From Candidatus Hadarchaeales archaeon (lineage in GTDB: Archaea; Hadarchaeota; Hadarchaeia; Hadarchaeales; Hadarchaeaceae): a stretch of 16,064 bases of DNA. Below are positions 10,620 to 16,064 of this stretch, in pieces (position 1 is the first letter of the stretch; each line of letters opens with the position of its first letter). The DNA is taken from NCBI GenBank assembly GCA_038851565.1, contig JAWCKV010000022.1, positions 1 to 16,064 on the forward strand, read 5' to 3'. The notes under the pieces were generated by a model. That model was not told where the DNA came from, did no database searches, and saw nothing but the letters and a program-made list of their open reading frames with translations. The translations under genes and the position numbers were made by a program.

Positions 10620-10686
10620 CGTTATTGTGTATTAAGTTTTTTTGAGGGGACAAAGCTATTTTTCACCGGAGAAGATAGCCTTTTGG

Positions 10687-10759
10687 GCCGCCGTAGCTCA
10701 GCCGGTAGAGCGATCGCCTCGTAAGCGATAGGTCGTGGGTTCAATCCCCACCGGCGGCT
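10687..10759 (+). tRNA. tRNA-Thr(CGT)
   Basis: Acceptor stem GCCGCCG/CGGCGGC, D arm GCTC/GAGC, anticodon arm ATCGC-CTCGTAA-GCGAT, T arm GTGGG-TTCAATC-CCCAC, discriminator T. No encoded CCA. Confidence 0.97.
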
Positions 10760-10788
10760 TCACAGCCTGTGCCTCATTCGGAAACCAA

Positions 10789-11385
10789 TCAATACGTCCA
10801 GACTGGAATCTCCTTCCATCTAGCTCCGTGTGCCTCCAAGGTCCTTGTAATCGCTGATGCCATCTCCCGTGGCACCATCAGCACAGCTTTCCCTATTTTT
10901 AAAACACCGGGACGCACAGCAACTCCATCGTACCTGTGAAGGTAGCGCTTCTTACCCCGCTGGGTTGTTGAGGTCCTGCCATACAGCGCGTGGTTTAACC
11001 TGTTTCTGGCATTCACGTCGAGCCCTTCTGTGTTGTAGGCGATTATCACCATCGGGTTAAGCCTCAGTTTGTGGACCTGCAACACCACTGGTTTGCCTGA
11101 AAGCATGAGCCCCTCCCCGCTCAGCGCCCCAGCCAGAGAAACATTTTTTTCAAGCTCCTTAGAGGTGACATGCACGATGTGGACGCGTGGGGGGGCAAGT
11201 TCTTCTACCTGCTTCATAGTTGCTTCATCTTTCCTTGAATAAATCACGGCAATGTCAATGTCGCTTTCTACCGTGGCCTCGCCCCGAGCAGCGCTGCCAA
11301 AGAGCGCTGCCGCCAAAACACAGGGAAGTTTGCCTACCCTTTCGCCGAATTCGAATAGCTCCCTCAGCCGAGCACCCGCATGCAC
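10789..11385 (-). CDS. Minimal nucleotidyltransferase (MNT) antitoxin with an extra C-terminal domain
   Basis: LFGSAARGEATVESDID is an exact GSX10DXD motif. The gene overlaps the 3' end of the upstream HEPN-like gene. Confidence 0.88.
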   Translation of the reverse strand: MHAGARLRELFEFGERVGKLPCVLAAALFGSAARGEATVESDIDIAVIYSRKDEATMKQVEELAPPRVHIVHVTSKELEKNVSLAGALSGEGLMLSGKPVVLQVHKLRLNPMVIIAYNTEGLDVNARNRLNHALYGRTSTTQRGKKRYLHRYDGVAVRPGVLKIGKAVLMVPREMASAITRTLEAHGARWKEIPVWTY

Positions 11386-11726
11386 GCCTCCCGCACCTCC
11401 CTGAGCATCTCCAATGCCCGCTTGGCTACTCCCCCATCGCTGCCCCTTCCGTAAACGTGCCTCGGCCTGAGCTGTTCCAGCGCATTAATGGCTTCAGCAA
11501 TCTTAAGCTCACCAACCCGGCGCCGCTCGATCTCGCCCGCCAGCCTGTTGTGCTTGATGTCCCTGTCAGCGGGAGTTATCCTGAGCTTGTGCAACGCGGC
11601 ATTCACGTAGTGAGCGGAGATCAGCACGCAGAGTTCGACAATGGCCTCGTAGTCGGCGCTTTGATCCAGCTTACTGAGAGTTCCCTCCATGGCCCGTAAT
11701 TTTTGTAAATGGTCCTCTATTTTCAT
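11364..11726 (-). CDS. HEPN-like toxin of a HEPN-MNT toxin-antitoxin pair
   Basis: 120-aa predicted helical protein with SAH..NA.L, KH and LEQLRPRHVYG, coupled to an MNT gene. Confidence 0.7.
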   Translation of the reverse strand: MKIEDHLQKLRAMEGTLSKLDQSADYEAIVELCVLISAHYVNAALHKLRITPADRDIKHNRLAGEIERRRVGELKIAEAINALEQLRPRHVYGRGSDGGVAKRALEMLREVREACMRVLG

Positions 11727-11763
11727 GTTTTCATATTAATATACTAAAAAGAGAGATTTAAAC

Positions 11764-11788
11764 GTTTTGTTATATAGATATACAAAAC
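11764..11788. promoter_or_regulatory. Palindromic operator candidate next to the TA promoter TATA box
   Basis: GTTTTGT-T-ATAT-AG-ATAT-ACAAAAC is an inverted repeat with one bulge. It abuts TTTAAA (about 11757-11762), some 31-36 nt upstream of the HEPN ATG. Confidence 0.45.
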
Positions 11789-11854
11789 AGGATTTCTGCT
11801 TACAGGGATACAAAAAGCTGCGAAAACAATTTTTACAAATTTTATGAATTTGCA

Positions 11855-11881
11855 TCGTGGGTTCAATCCCTACCGGCGGCT
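11855..11881 (+). repeat. Direct repeat of the tRNA-Thr 3' end (att-like site)
   Basis: TCGTGGGTTCAATCCCTACCGGCGGCT matches 10733-10759 (TCGTGGGTTCAATCCCCACCGGCGGCT) at 26/27 positions and is followed by CCA. Confidence 0.92.
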
Positions 11882-11980
11882 CCACGCGAAAATCGATGCG
11901 ATCCATGTAATGTCAACCAGTTTAAGACCATAGTAAGAATAGTTAGAAATAAATGACAAGCTAAGTATATCATCATATGG

Positions 11981-12964
11981 ATGTATCTAATCGTGGACGA
12001 TTGGAAAACATTCGTTGGTAAAAAAGAGAACCGTTTTGAGTTACTTCAAGGAGAAAAAAGGCAAGAATTTTGCTCGGACGATCTGAGCCAGATAATAATT
12101 GTGGCGGCATCTTCAATATCAATTGGAGCGATTCGCCTAGCATTAGAAAAAGGGATAGACATCGTTTTTATAAGTCGTTTTGGATATCCCGTTGGTCGCA
12201 TATACCCTTGCAAACTTGGCGGAACAACGCTGACTCGCAAAAAACAGCTCGAAGCTTACTTTTCTTGGAAGGGTTTAGAGCTGGCTAAAAAATTTGTTTA
12301 TGGCAAAATAAAGAATCAAGTCGCTGTTTTGAAAAATTTGCAAAAAACGAGAAGCAACGTTGATTTCACCAAATATATAGAAAAAATGGAGGAGAGAGAA
12401 CTCCAAATCGATATGATTGATGGGAGTTTAGACGAAGTCCGCGAAAAACTATTAGGTGTGGAAGGTAATGCAGCCAGCGAATACTTTCAAGCGCTTGCGG
12501 AGATATTGCCGTTTGAAAAACGAGATCGAACTAGCGCTGACCCATTTAACATAATGCTTAACTATGCATACGGAATCATTTATTCAGAAGTCGAAAGGGC
12601 ATGCGTTTTGGCAGGTCTCGACCCATATTTTGGGTATCTACATACAGACCGTTATGGTAAACCCTCCATGGTCTTGGATTTGATCGAAGAATTCCGTGCG
12701 CCCCTATCAGATAAACCCGTAATAACTCTTTTTGCTAGAAAACAAGTACGGGATAAGGACTTTGATAAAAGTGGCGAAAGTGTTCTGCTAAGTGAAACGG
12801 GACGAAGAAAAGTGATTGAGGCCGTGATTGAAAAGTTACACGATACAGCAAAAAACAGGGGTACTGAAAAAAGAATATGTAATATAATAGTTGAACAGGC
12901 ACGTGCGATAGCCCGATTTATTTTGAGTGAATCGGAGAAATATGAGCCTTGGAGTTATGTTTGA
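11981..12964 (+). CDS. cas1: CRISPR-associated integrase Cas1
   Basis: Motifs K..NQ, LLGVEGNAA..YF, D.FN.MLNYAYG, GLDPY.GYLH and S...DLIEEFR...D. The catalytic E/H/E residues are present. Confidence 0.97.
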   Translation: MYLIVDDWKTFVGKKENRFELLQGEKRQEFCSDDLSQIIIVAASSISIGAIRLALEKGIDIVFISRFGYPVGRIYPCKLGGTTLTRKKQLEAYFSWKGLELAKKFVYGKIKNQVAVLKNLQKTRSNVDFTKYIEKMEERELQIDMIDGSLDEVREKLLGVEGNAASEYFQALAEILPFEKRDRTSADPFNIMLNYAYGIIYSEVERACVLAGLDPYFGYLHTDRYGKPSMVLDLIEEFRAPLSDKPVITLFARKQVRDKDFDKSGESVLLSETGRRKVIEAVIEKLHDTAKNRGTEKRICNIIVEQARAIARFILSESEKYEPWSYV

Positions 12965-13264
12965 ATGATTTGGTGGGTTATCTACGATATCGCTGGCAAT
13001 AAAACAAGAAGCCGGGCGGCGTCCGCATGCATGAACTATGGGCTAAAAAGAGTCCAAAAAAGCGCATTTCTGGGTGAGCTTACAAAAAATCGTGCTGAAA
13101 TGCTGGCACTCGAAATTAAAGAAATCATATCTCCAAACGATTGCGTGTTTCTTATTCCATGCTGTTCCAACTGTTTTAAAGATAAGATCATTTATGGCGA
13201 GTTTGATGAAGAAGCTGTAAAGAAAAAGGATTGGTATATTGTAACTGGCGACAATGAAGGATGA
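12965..13264 (+). CDS. cas2: CRISPR-associated protein Cas2
   Basis: VIYDI....R......C..YGL.RVQKSAF.G and a CxxC motif near the C-terminus. Starts immediately after the cas1 stop. Confidence 0.96.
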   Translation: MIWWVIYDIAGNKTRSRAASACMNYGLKRVQKSAFLGELTKNRAEMLALEIKEIISPNDCVFLIPCCSNCFKDKIIYGEFDEEAVKKKDWYIVTGDNEG

Positions 13265-13835
13265 ACAAACCTTATCTGCAAAGGATATAATGAACTTCTG
13301 CTATTGCCCCAGAATTATTTATTATGAGCATGTCCTCAAGATCAGGCAAGCTACAACTAAAAAGGAGCTTATAGGTCGCGAAAAGTACGAAGAATTCAAA
13401 AAGAAATCGAGACGAGGCAAGATAATAAAAGAGTTTCCAAAACTAAAAAAACTTTATGATGTTTATTTATACTCAAATAAAATGAACATTGGGACTCGTG
13501 TTGATTGCGTTGCTATTAATGAGGTAAAAAAAGAAGCGTATCCAATCCAAATAAAGTATTCAAGCAGGCCATCAAAAATATACAAAACGCAAAAGTTACA
13601 ACTGCTTCTTGAAGCTAAACTCATAGAGGAGATAATGGGCTACAGCACGCCTCTAGGTTTTATTAAATTTCTAAAAACTGATGATTTAGTTCCCGTTAAT
13701 GTAAAAAACAGATCGGAACTTGATACAGCAATCTGCGATATAAAAAAGTTCATCCATACGGAAGTGTTTCCCGATCCCACCAGATATAAAAGAAGGTGTG
13801 TCGACTGTTGTTATAGAAAAAGGTGCTGGTTATGA
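13254..13835 (+). CDS. cas4: CRISPR-associated protein Cas4 with a variant nuclease motif
   Basis: Fe-S ligands YCPR..YY and C..C.Y...C, plus RecB-like RVD...PIQIK. Located between cas2 and the effector. Confidence 0.92.
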   Translation: MKDEQTLSAKDIMNFCYCPRIIYYEHVLKIRQATTKKELIGREKYEEFKKKSRRGKIIKEFPKLKKLYDVYLYSNKMNIGTRVDCVAINEVKKEAYPIQIKYSSRPSKIYKTQKLQLLLEAKLIEEIMGYSTPLGFIKFLKTDDLVPVNVKNRSELDTAICDIKKFIHTEVFPDPTRYKRRCVDCCYRKRCWL

Positions 13836-15469
13836 CAAATGAAGGAGTTATAACTAGTGTAAAGTTCAAATTGTATTTTGACAACGAAAACGATAGAAGA
13901 GAGATGGACGAGTTCTTTGATGAATATGCTAAAGCAGTTACCTTTGCAGCAAGGATTATTGACAAATTGCGCAAAAAGTTCAAGCCTTTGGGCAGGTATG
14001 TTGACAAAAGATGGGTCCCAGAGATAGGCGTTTGCAGTAAGTGCAATAAGAATGGTGAGCTTTATCGCGTTAACACTTACAATGGGGAAAAATTGTGTAA
14101 ATCTTGTTACAATCAAGACTTCAGTGACACCGCAATCCGCAAAAGAATCGTGCCTGTGGTTCGTGGCAAAAGGAAGGGTGAAAAAGTTGATGGTAGCCTT
14201 AATCTTCGTAATGTCACAACAAAAATTTCTCAGACACATATGCACTATGCCGTTAGGGACGCCCTTCAAATTCTTGACGCTTTAAAAAAGCAACGAAAAC
14301 AAAGATTAAAGAGGCATATACGTGACAAAAAAAGACTAAAAATGTTCGAAGAAATGCTTTCAGATCCTCTTAAAAGAGTTGAAGTTCCGCAAAGGAAAGG
14401 ACAAAGGGTGGTGAGGTATGTACACAAGTCTCAGGAAGATAGAGTTAACGAACTTCCAGGATACTCGCTGGCCAAAATAAAAAATAAAATTGTTATTCTG
14501 AAAAGAAATCTATATCGCGATAAAAAATCTCTGTTTAAAATGAACCCAATTTATTTCAAGGGAACGAGAGTTACTCTGACCCCGACAATTAAATTCGACG
14601 TTTCGAATAATCGAGTCCGTATTACCCTATTGCGTGCGAGATGGTACGGATTCAGCGGAAGTAACGTTGCAAGTGAGCGCGGCAGGAAATATTTTTCAGA
14701 AAAATTGCAAAAAATATTGGCTTTGAAGCCAAGATACGCTTATCTCATTAGAAAACAGATAGCAGAGGTCAATGGAATGCCAATTTATGAGTATTATCTG
14801 CAGTACGCTGTTGAGGAGTTCCCCAAGCCCATTTTGGAGTATACAGGAGTTTTAGGAATAGACTGGGGAATCAAAAAATTGGCCGCTCTAGTTTTTTTTG
14901 AGAAAAATGATCCAAATAAGCCAAAATTTGTGAAGTTTTTCAAGGCAGATGAGATAATAAAAACAAAGATATCTTGGAGAAAACAGCGATACGCTCTTAC
15001 AGGGTTGCATCACAGAATAGAAAAAATGAAGAGAATGCGTCCGATAAAACCCAAGATTGATTATATATTACATAACATTTCAAAAGAAATTGTTAATATG
15101 GCAAAACAAAAGAATGCTGCAATTGCAATTGAAAAACTTGAAAAAATAAAAAAAAGTAAACCTCGACAAAGATCGAGAGAAAAATACTTCTTATCACTTG
15201 GAGATTATGCAAAATTGGCGCAGTTTATTTCTTACAAGGCAAAAAAAGAGGGTATTGCTGTGATTGAAATTTCACCGGAGTACACAAGCCGGGTTTGTAG
15301 TCACTGTGGTTCGATTAATACTGAACGTCCTTACAAAAAACCGAATGCTTTAAGACCGTCTTGGTCTCTTTTTAAATGCAACGACTGTGGGGTAGAGCTA
15401 AATTCAGATTACAACGCCGCTTGTAATATAGCTAAAAAGGGTTTGGATGAGCTTACTCGTAGCCTTTAA
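13832..15469 (+). CDS. cas12f: Type V-F miniature effector Cas12f2 (Cas14b-like), 545 aa
   Basis: RuvC-I LGIDWG, RuvC-II IAIEKL, YTS..CSHCG...FKCNDCG Zn finger and RuvC-III NSDYNAA.NIA. The N-terminal SVK.K...F.EYAKA.TF, the CSKC/CKSC Zn finger and Y.YLIRK...YEYYLQY match my recollection of Micrarchaeal Cas12f2. ATGA overlap with the cas4 stop; adjacent to cas1/2/4 and the array. Confidence 0.9.
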   Translation: MTNEGVITSVKFKLYFDNENDRREMDEFFDEYAKAVTFAARIIDKLRKKFKPLGRYVDKRWVPEIGVCSKCNKNGELYRVNTYNGEKLCKSCYNQDFSDTAIRKRIVPVVRGKRKGEKVDGSLNLRNVTTKISQTHMHYAVRDALQILDALKKQRKQRLKRHIRDKKRLKMFEEMLSDPLKRVEVPQRKGQRVVRYVHKSQEDRVNELPGYSLAKIKNKIVILKRNLYRDKKSLFKMNPIYFKGTRVTLTPTIKFDVSNNRVRITLLRARWYGFSGSNVASERGRKYFSEKLQKILALKPRYAYLIRKQIAEVNGMPIYEYYLQYAVEEFPKPILEYTGVLGIDWGIKKLAALVFFEKNDPNKPKFVKFFKADEIIKTKISWRKQRYALTGLHHRIEKMKRMRPIKPKIDYILHNISKEIVNMAKQKNAAIAIEKLEKIKKSKPRQRSREKYFLSLGDYAKLAQFISYKAKKEGIAVIEISPEYTSRVCSHCGSINTERPYKKPNALRPSWSLFKCNDCGVELNSDYNAACNIAKKGLDELTRSL

Positions 15470-15472: not shown

Positions 15473-15494
15473 TAATCAGCAGCATAGAATTAAC

Positions 15495-15793
15495 TGTCAT
15501 GTCTCGTGGGATCCCATTCGCTAAATGAATGGGATTGACGTGGCAACATGTCGCGAGCTACAGTGGTAATGTTCCACACTCGCATGCTACAATAACATGC
15601 GAGGGCGAGCGAAGGATTAAAAGGGCGGCGTTGCACCGCAAAAGGGTTGTAAAACCCTCGATGGCCCGAAAACCACGGTAAGGTATGTCACCAATAGCGG
15701 ATAAATCCGCCCAAGGTGATTTAGCGTGGTGCGAGCCACGCATACCGACGGGCCAATCCGAAGTTCGGTTCATATGGTTCTGCATATGTTTTT
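15495..15793 (+). ncRNA. tracrRNA candidate of the type V-F system
   Basis: Anti-repeat GTTCG-GTTCA-tatg-GTTCTGCA (15763-15784) is complementary to the repeat 5' part. Loop GTTGCA (15630-15635) in a GCGG/CCGC hairpin is complementary to the repeat 3' end TGCAAC. Many stems are present and it ends in a T5 run. Boundaries are inferred. Confidence 0.8.
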
Positions 15794-15876
15794 AAACTCA
15801 TATACGAAAAAATGACAGTCCAAAACTTGATGTAATAAATGATCCCCTTTGGAGATTTGGTTCACTTTACGGCGGT
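15794..15876 (+). promoter_or_regulatory. CRISPR leader candidate
   Basis: AT-rich non-coding stretch between the tracrRNA T-run and the first repeat. Confidence 0.5.
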
Positions 15877-16064
15877 CTTGCAGAACTTGAACTAACGAAC
15901 GTAGGAATGCAACTAATAAAAAGGAGGAATTATTAGTTGACACTTTGGTAAACTTGCAGAACTTGAACTAACGAACGTAGGAATGCAACGTTCTTACCTT
16001 CTCAAGCCTCTGGATGTCCTCAATCTTGCAGAACTTGAACTAACGAACGTAGGAATGCAACTTG
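15877..16064 (+). CRISPR. CRISPR array with 37-nt repeat CTTGCAGAACTTGAACTAACGAACGTAGGAATGCAAC (likely continues beyond the window)
   Basis: Three identical repeats at 15877-15913, 15953-15989 and 16025-16061. Spacers are 39 nt (15914-15952) and 35 nt (15990-16024). Confidence 0.98.

Follow-up and report, generated by a model that had tools for sequence, protein, structure and literature searches.

In this study, a stretch of 16,064 nt from a contig of a Hadarchaeales archaeon (JAWCKV010000022.1, assembly GCA_038851565.1), hereafter the window, was investigated for the gene at 13832-15469, which an earlier note had described as a compact, 545-aa Cas12f2 orthologue without frameshifts. This gene encodes an intact Cas12f2 (Cas14b) effector within a complete type V-F2 CRISPR locus, and we consider it likely that the system works as an RNA-guided DNase against viruses or plasmids at hot-spring temperatures. 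The family, the locus plan and the expected chemistry are already known, and the effector is a member of a rare, little-studied known family. All coordinates are positions in the window, and residue numbers follow the 545-aa start at 13832; the labels G, L and P designate genomes of the phylum Hadarchaeota (n = 66, the own genome being G000), fetched loci and proteins of relatives, respectively, and X1 is a hot-spring metagenome sequencing run.

Identity and conservation of the effector

The open reading frame (ORF) lies on the forward strand and runs over 545 aa with zero internal stops, while an alternative in-frame GTG start at 13823 would give 548 aa. It recorded 690 bits against the Cas12f2 profile NF049972 (cut-off 450), spanning residues 9-541, and matched the PADLOC Cas14b model with an E value of 4.5e-134, in agreement with the earlier assignment. 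The comparison of Cas12f and TnpB profiles proposed with that assignment pointed the same way, as the TnpB profiles NF038281 (IS200; cut-off 425) and NF038280 (IS607; cut-off 350) gave 55 and 35 bits, respectively. In a quick maximum-likelihood tree of 67 rows, assessed by Shimodaira-Hasegawa-like approximate likelihood ratio (SH-aLRT) support only and without bootstrap, the effector and P0002 (support 100) fell inside a 38-row Cas12f2 clade (support 99), which includes Mi1Cas12f2, Mi2Cas12f2 and a Cas14b.3-like protein (P0031 and P0049 being taken as the Mi1 and Mi2 proteins by length and a by-eye match of the first 90 residues). All 27 TnpB-like rows were placed outside this clade, together with one Cas12f2-like row, P0057, so that the clustering with TnpB which the earlier note had named as a possible objection was not observed. 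Nor was near identity to a characterised orthologue, since the effector shares 33% identity with Mi1Cas12f2 and about 30% with Mi2Cas12f2, compared with 68% for the nearest database protein (P0002), 47-51% for a DPANN-type group and 37-39% for the Cas14b.3 group. Judged from profiles, tree and identities, the effector is a member of the Cas12f2 family but not a characterised orthologue. The family is rare: a search of 1.84 billion representative proteins gave 21 matches with E <1e-30, and full Cas12f2 genes above the cut-off were detected in 3 of the 66 phylum genomes, the own genome among them and the other two forming a distant branch.

Two other identities were tried and rejected. An IS200/IS605 or IS607 TnpB was set aside on account of both profiles being far below cut-off, the cas operon and array as context, and the tree; Cas12f1 (Cas14a / V-U3) was set aside because there was no full-length similarity to Un1- or As-type effectors. 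Matches in the PDB were confined to residues 294-541, leaving the N-terminal half covered by no solved structure, and the PDB search found no solved structure of a full-length relative.

The motifs formerly read from the letters are all present, namely CSKC (68-71), CKSC (89-92), GIDWG (342-346), IEKL (433-436), CSHC (489-492), CNDC (516-519) and SDYNA (525-529). In the alignment, D344, E434 and all eight cysteines are kept in each of the 32 other Cas12f2-clade proteins, and D526 and R499 each in 31, which agrees with the intact RuvC triad described before and with the two cysteine motifs as putative zinc fingers. The short basic segment between the C-terminal cysteine pairs (residues 498-512, ERPYKKPNALRPSWS) is also there, but it is not special, as a KPNA-type insertion is common to 4 of 14 close relatives. 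By analogy, Arg499 is likely the counterpart of R490 in Un1Cas12f1, the role of the latter being taken from excerpts of PMC8053092. The tryptophan of GIDWG, W345, was found in none of the 32 relatives, 24 of which carry R at that position; a residue other than R appears to be tolerated here, because the active Mi1Cas12f2 has I at 345. Departures from conserved columns amounted to 21 of 169 in the effector, with relatives ranging from 4 to 60.

Locus organization and proposed mechanism

The cas1, cas2 and cas4 genes lie upstream of the effector gene as one tight operon (Table 1), and the same cas1-cas2-cas4-effector order was observed in all seven fetched close loci covering it (L001, L016-L019, L022, L024). 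Downstream, approximately 400 nt separate the effector gene from the first of three repeats, and the predicted trans-activating CRISPR RNA (tracrRNA) sits there. Folding of 15490-15913 was better than 100 of 100 shuffles (z -3.6), and the consensus structure over five loci displayed two-sided changes in 21 of 50 pairs. The anti-repeat duplex of the window (-30.0 kcal/mol) was matched by 0 of 200 shuffled repeats, and over ten loci four of the five core anti-repeat pairs change on both sides. Taking 15 tracrRNA-repeat pairs over the same number of loci, 92.3% of the cells were paired as against 85.6% in shuffles (0/500) and 20-40% for slid registers, the last control being biased in favour of the pairing since its structure was drawn from the window. 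These data argue for a conserved tracrRNA, putatively complementary to the repeat at two sites, between gene and array. No Rfam family matched it, and it was not found in five relatives with repeats or cas genes, a search without positive control in incomplete bins. Scans for sigma-70 promoters and terminators stayed at chance level, with models ill-suited to an archaeon, and no RNA sequencing run holding the locus was among the matches listed. Two spacers separate the repeats, one of 39 nt (15914-15952) and one of 35 nt (15990-16024); the contig ends at 16064, 3 nt past the third repeat, and a search of the host bin did not recover the remaining array. As a whole, the locus is a complete type V-F2 system comprising cas1-cas2-cas4-cas12f2, a predicted tracrRNA and an array cut by the contig end.

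Excerpts of PMC7229846 report that Mi1, Mi2 and AuCas12f2 cut double-stranded DNA (dsDNA) near protospacer position 21, beside a 5' T-rich protospacer adjacent motif (PAM). Following these enzymes and Un1Cas12f1, Cas1, Cas2 and Cas4 would insert spacers at the leader, and the array transcript would pair with the tracrRNA through a long anti-repeat and a 6-nt pseudoknot between loop and repeat. The complex of protein and RNA would then locate a 5' T-rich PAM and open an R-loop, upon which dsDNA would be cut at a distance of about 21 nt from it; collateral cutting of single-stranded DNA is likely as well. By analogy with these relatives, it is very likely that the effector has nuclease activity, and it probably recognises a T-rich PAM, which is assumed by homology because no protospacer was found. 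When 11 spacers were compared with the host genome and the fetched loci, the only matches were self-matches and three short ones at chance level, and no self-targeting was seen with these spacers in the 87% complete host bin. The V-F2 repeat was not found in viral contigs, and no plasmid record covering 80% of the effector protein was found.

Table 1. Coordinates of the features recognised in the window, with strand and basis of assignment
Feature	Position	Strand	Basis or remark
cas12f2 (Cas14b) effector gene	13832..15469	+	545 aa; NF049972, PADLOC Cas14b, tree
N-terminal four-Cys motif C68/C71/C89/C92, predicted zinc finger	14033..14107	+	Cys in 32/32; zinc binding putative
RuvC-I catalytic Asp344	14861..14863	+	32/32; aligned with GIDLG Asp of PDB 8j3r/8j1j/8j12 Cas12f chains
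RuvC-II catalytic Glu434	15131..15133	+	32/32; alignment to PDB Cas12f chains
TNB/Nuc zinc ribbon C489/C492/C516/C519 with Arg499	15296..15388	+	PF07282; Cys 32/32, Arg 31/32
RuvC-III catalytic Asp526	15407..15409	+	31/32
cas1	11981..12964	+	TIGR00287, 289 bits; sole Cas1 match in genome
cas2	12965..13264	+	TIGR01573, PF09827
cas4	13254..13835	+	TIGR00372; stop overlaps cas12f2 start (ATGA)
Predicted tracrRNA, ends approximate, ~290 nt	15495..15790	+	Folding and covariation
AR:R1-like site, tracrRNA loop complementary to last 6 nt of repeat	15630..15635	+	98% of cells paired over 10 loci; nearly invariant
AR:R2-like site, anti-repeat against 5' two-thirds of repeat	15763..15784	+	Duplex -30.0 kcal/mol
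AT-rich leader, putative	15791..15876	+	Position and composition
CRISPR array start	15877..16061	+	Three identical 37-nt repeats at 15877, 15953, 16025
tRNA-Thr(CGT), insertion site	10686..10761	+	–
HEPN-like (11364-11726) and nucleotidyltransferase (10789-11385) pair	10789..11726	-	PF01909, NF047752 below cut-off
att-like scar, tRNA-Thr 3'-end duplicate closing HEPN/MNT module	11855..11885	+	31 nt, 94% identical to 10733-10763

Host, heat adaptation and origin of the cassette

The housekeeping gene UppS in the window has named best matches in Hadarchaeales, up to 79%, and judged from this gene the host is a Hadarchaeales archaeon whether the cassette was transferred or mis-joined. Run X1, which belongs to one study of a hot spring and may represent the source site, holds 0.81 of the sampled words of the cassette and covers the locus region with few differences. 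The host proteome, taken from crude gene calls (715 genes), displayed an IVYWREL fraction of 0.439 and a charged-versus-polar (CvP) value of 10.4, with a guanine-cytosine (GC) content of 0.66 in tRNAs; this IVYWREL fraction would correspond to about 76 °C. These proxies suggest a thermophilic host. Parts of PMC10811742 give predicted growth of 50-82 °C for Hadarchaea, with one enriched at 70 °C. Among 20 Cas12f2 proteins, the effector ranked second for both IVYWREL and Pro and had the second-lowest N+Q, and we lean slightly towards an enzyme optimum of at least 55 °C.

With regard to the insertion site, GC drops from approximately 0.58 to 0.37 at the cassette, which appears to be of low-GC origin. 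Four relatives supplied a tRNA-Thr(CGT) locus for comparison. In G011 and G024 a radical-SAM gene follows the tRNA directly, and in G017 the neighbours are different. In the congener G001, flanking genes are 72-78% identical and the 210 nt following the tRNA match 11855-12064 with one mismatch; on a separate contig, its last repeat adjoins the same radical-SAM gene, so that both cassette ends occur at the same site. The own genome has the radical-SAM gene followed by the start of cas6b at a contig end. Between the tRNA and the cassette of the window there is a module of about 1.1 kb (10762-11885), bordered on one side by the 3' end of tRNA-Thr and on the other by the copy of that end; it holds no integrase and is absent from the same site in G001. 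It carries what is likely an MNT-HEPN toxin-antitoxin pair, with host-like GC at third codon positions (GC3; 0.72 and 0.59), the HEPN assignment being an Atlas lead only (28% of one cluster). Since this module, the V-F2 cassette and the cas6b start share it, the tRNA-Thr site is a defence hotspot. The window Cas1 groups with those of G013, L016 and L023 in a single clade (support 100), and the V-F2 repeat type occurs in 6 of the 66 phylum genomes, all of the host's family, suggesting that the cassette lineage has long been resident in Hadarchaeales. A G001-like organism was also detected in run X1, and we hold with fair confidence that the cassette was recently transferred between neighbouring species.

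A bolder and less likely reading would be a heat-adapted, adaptation-competent Cas12f2 of a Hadarchaeales-resident lineage, moving between co-living hot-spring species as a transposase-free tRNA-Thr cassette. If this is true, strong cutting at 60-75 °C would be expected, which would partly explain the weak record of the Cas14b family at 37 °C, and the system might provide the first Cas12f2 structure and an enzyme for one-pot diagnostics.

Several results weigh against a working, heat-adapted system. For the repeat-tracrRNA duplex, the energy surpassed every shuffle in no more than two of nine loci (the window and L020), and in two it was unremarkable. Exact searches of viral contigs, with four pieces taken from the two spacers of the window and one from a G001 spacer, found no protospacer, and spacer 2, allowing up to three mismatches in the 66 phylum genomes, matched its own array only. 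According to excerpts of PMC7229846, all three published Cas12f2 enzymes failed in E. coli plasmid interference, as did every Cas14-family enzyme covered there, and the cleavage signal of Mi1Cas12f2 was weak (2.5-fold). The heat signals in protein composition are weak and track GC and kinship, and the effector's CvP of 15.8 is unremarkable within the Cas12f2 range of 11.3-20.2. Reverse gyrase was not found in G000 (87% complete) or G001, and is present in 7 of the 66 phylum genomes; a moderate thermophily is likelier for the host because of this absence. The thermophilic host that the earlier note had left conditional is thereby better supported, through its Hadarchaeales affiliation, the hot-spring run and the proteome proxies, with the missing reverse gyrase remaining on the other side. 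The cassette also has a GC3 of 0.35 as compared with 0.71 in host genes, an incomplete fit to the host codon bias. Lastly, window and X1 show three differences in the effector gene, all of them non-synonymous (neighbouring genes: 5 of 18), and at 345 (R) and 372 the residue in X1 is that of the family consensus.

From the low GC3, a cooler donor may be the cassette source, and it is possible, though in our view doubtful, that the V-F2 system is real but came recently from a cooler-living, low-GC, DPANN-like organism and is not heat-adapted, in which case the enzyme would work poorly, or only in cooler parts of the spring. Apart from the GC3 gap and the missing reverse gyrase, this is favoured by five named homologues among the closest full-length matches, which belong to Nanoarchaeota/Nanoarchaeia, Aenigmatarchaeota and Pacearchaeota (one being partial), and by a depth in X1 of 3-8 for the cassette against 7-13 for host genes, contig depth being a poor measure. 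Nevertheless, the GC3 of 0.35 exceeds that of six of seven DPANN-like loci (0.20-0.24; L020 0.33), relatives of the own clade reach a cas1 GC3 of 0.44-0.49, and the tracrRNA, with a GC of 0.515, is joint highest of nine. Within the clade, moreover, amino-acid identity has fallen to 68-75%; one of its members sits in a further Hadarchaeales genome, and another lies beside a Hef gene 60% identical to that of the host.

A somewhat fainter prospect is that the cassette belongs to the co-occurring congener G001, or its strain, and was mis-joined at the shared 73-nt tRNA-Thr; this would change the host species and remove the case for recent transfer, leaving the nature of the enzyme untouched. The two cassette ends in G001, the cas6b start that follows the radical-SAM gene of G000 instead, and the G001-like organism in X1 all agree with such a mis-join, and 11826-12785 is bridged by no X1 contig among the matches listed (eight X1 pieces). 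On the other hand, the join at 11855-11885 has its own variant base and then cassette sequence, the tRNA-end stretch shared on either side is below 20 nt, which would be too short for a k-mer jump, and the HEPN/MNT pair and the 3' flank of the window's tRNA are joined on one X1 contig, whose depth (8.2) is host-like. Transfer between neighbouring species is preferred over a mis-join.

It is improbable that the window allele is attenuated or decaying, en route to the lone-repeat relics seen in the order. Such decay would be in line with W345 being unique among 33 proteins, the three non-synonymous differences from X1, and the solitary or degenerate repeats in L016, G006, G020, G031 and the host's own contig C11. 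At window position 13817, one X1 contig lacks one base near the cas4 end, a loss that would shift the last codons and point the same way; its depth is 3.5 of 11.5 and it may be an error. Yet the four ORFs are intact and the repeats identical, the conserved-column departures lie inside the range of relatives, three differences are too few to judge, and the active Mi1Cas12f2 likewise lacks R and G at positions 345 and 372. A transposon-associated TnpB in place of a CRISPR effector is scarcely credible: the effector scored 100.1 against the broad guided_TnpB model NF040570 (cut-off 100) and several relatives are auto-named 'transposase', but other Cas12f2 proteins score alike on that model, and the Cas12f2 score, the tree, the cas operon, tracrRNA and array, with no transposase among the window ORFs around the effector gene, speak against it.

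Comparison with known systems and related loci

Mi1Cas12f2 (Cas14b4), Mi2Cas12f2 and AuCas12f2 share the family model with the window effector, as well as a tracrRNA between gene and array, and the RuvC triad and eight cysteines are alike in Mi1 and Mi2. Their lengths are 544, 586 and 603 aa, respectively, against 545 aa here; the window effector differs from Mi1 and Mi2 by the identities given above (Au was not compared directly), and its host, unlike theirs, is a non-DPANN archaeon. In the archaeal Cas14 survey, as excerpted from PMC10606334, hosts are mostly DPANN. We found no paper linking Hadarchaea to Cas12f or Cas14, with most subscription journals, patents and supplements outside the coverage. 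The Cas14b.3 (QBM01405.1) cluster belongs to the same Cas12f2 sub-clade and has the same locus plan, differing in its 37-39% identity and a locus lower in GC. The nearest relative, P0002 on metagenome contig locus L016, is nearly identical in its tracrRNA plan and repeat; unlike the window, it has a single repeat, directly adjacent to the stop codon of a Hef/ERCC4 gene of the host.

Un1Cas12f1 (Cas14a1) shares with the window a 37-nt repeat ending GGAATGCAAC and, according to the portions of PMC8053092 used here, two tracrRNA-repeat duplexes, the RuvC triad with Arg, and a four-Cys Nuc finger. Its sequence similarity to the effector is limited to the C-terminal part (residues 378-538), its tracrRNA is about 140 nt against about 290 nt, and it acts as a dimer, which is known for Cas12f1 but not Cas12f2. 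SisTnpB1, a thermophilic archaeal TnpB, is likewise a small RuvC nuclease from an archaeon of a hot habitat, but is transposon-encoded and uses a single RNA, without array or adaptation genes; in the extracts from PMC11579290, its collateral cutting is heat-activated at 70-78 °C, and it already fills much of the niche of a thermostable miniature nuclease. The idea of a thermostable miniature editor, raised in the earlier note, is consequently weaker than it was put, given the E. coli results, the 2.5-fold signal of Mi1 and the fact that Un1Cas12f1 (529 aa) and AsCas12f1 (422 aa) are both smaller. In TemStaPro, Cas12f2 was predicted among the most thermostable Cas12 groups, a prediction stated there as untested, and a complete hot-spring archaeal locus with a well-defined tracrRNA offers a ready test of it. 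Its relevance would lie more in structural work, the genetics of thermophiles and diagnostics at high temperature than in mammalian editing.

Some further loci were noticed during the survey of the phylum. A second, distant Hadarchaea branch of Cas12f2, with 26-28% identity and above the family cut-off, was found at L014:6420-8700 (G029) and L015:8605-10680 (G044), having five repeats in G029 and two degenerate ones in G044, and no cas1, cas2 or cas4 within the stretches fetched. In G020, L110:7422-10336 harbors a divergent 592-aa Cas14a/Cas12f1-like gene on a long branch, which PADLOC recognised (E 2.8e-40) and which reached none of the NCBIfam effector cut-offs. It is accompanied by a cas4 and by a separate array with some ten 37-nt repeats, and a lone V-F2 repeat adjoins it. 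At the end of the own contig C42 (L122:2016-2129), the cas6b start beyond the assembly gap points to a class 1 CRISPR locus that is missing from the assembly and shares this hotspot; this 38-aa fragment was found by PADLOC and missed by TIGR01877 and the Pfam Cas6 models.

Solitary or degenerate V-F2 repeats were detected in intergenic positions at L016:3540-3576, L111:887-923, L112:4101-4137, L110:7352-7388 and own C11:15677-15713 (L123), and frequently follow closely on the stop codon of a host gene in convergent orientation (Hef/ERCC4, translin). A repeat of another type, which we take to be type I-B-like, stands directly before the lone V-F2 repeat in G006 and G031. The lone repeats resemble remnants of earlier cassettes, left at CRISPR sites that have been used more than once. 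The array of G002 (L109:278-606) contains a 329-nt insert between intact repeats, about nine times a normal spacer, inside which a gene-like stretch starts.

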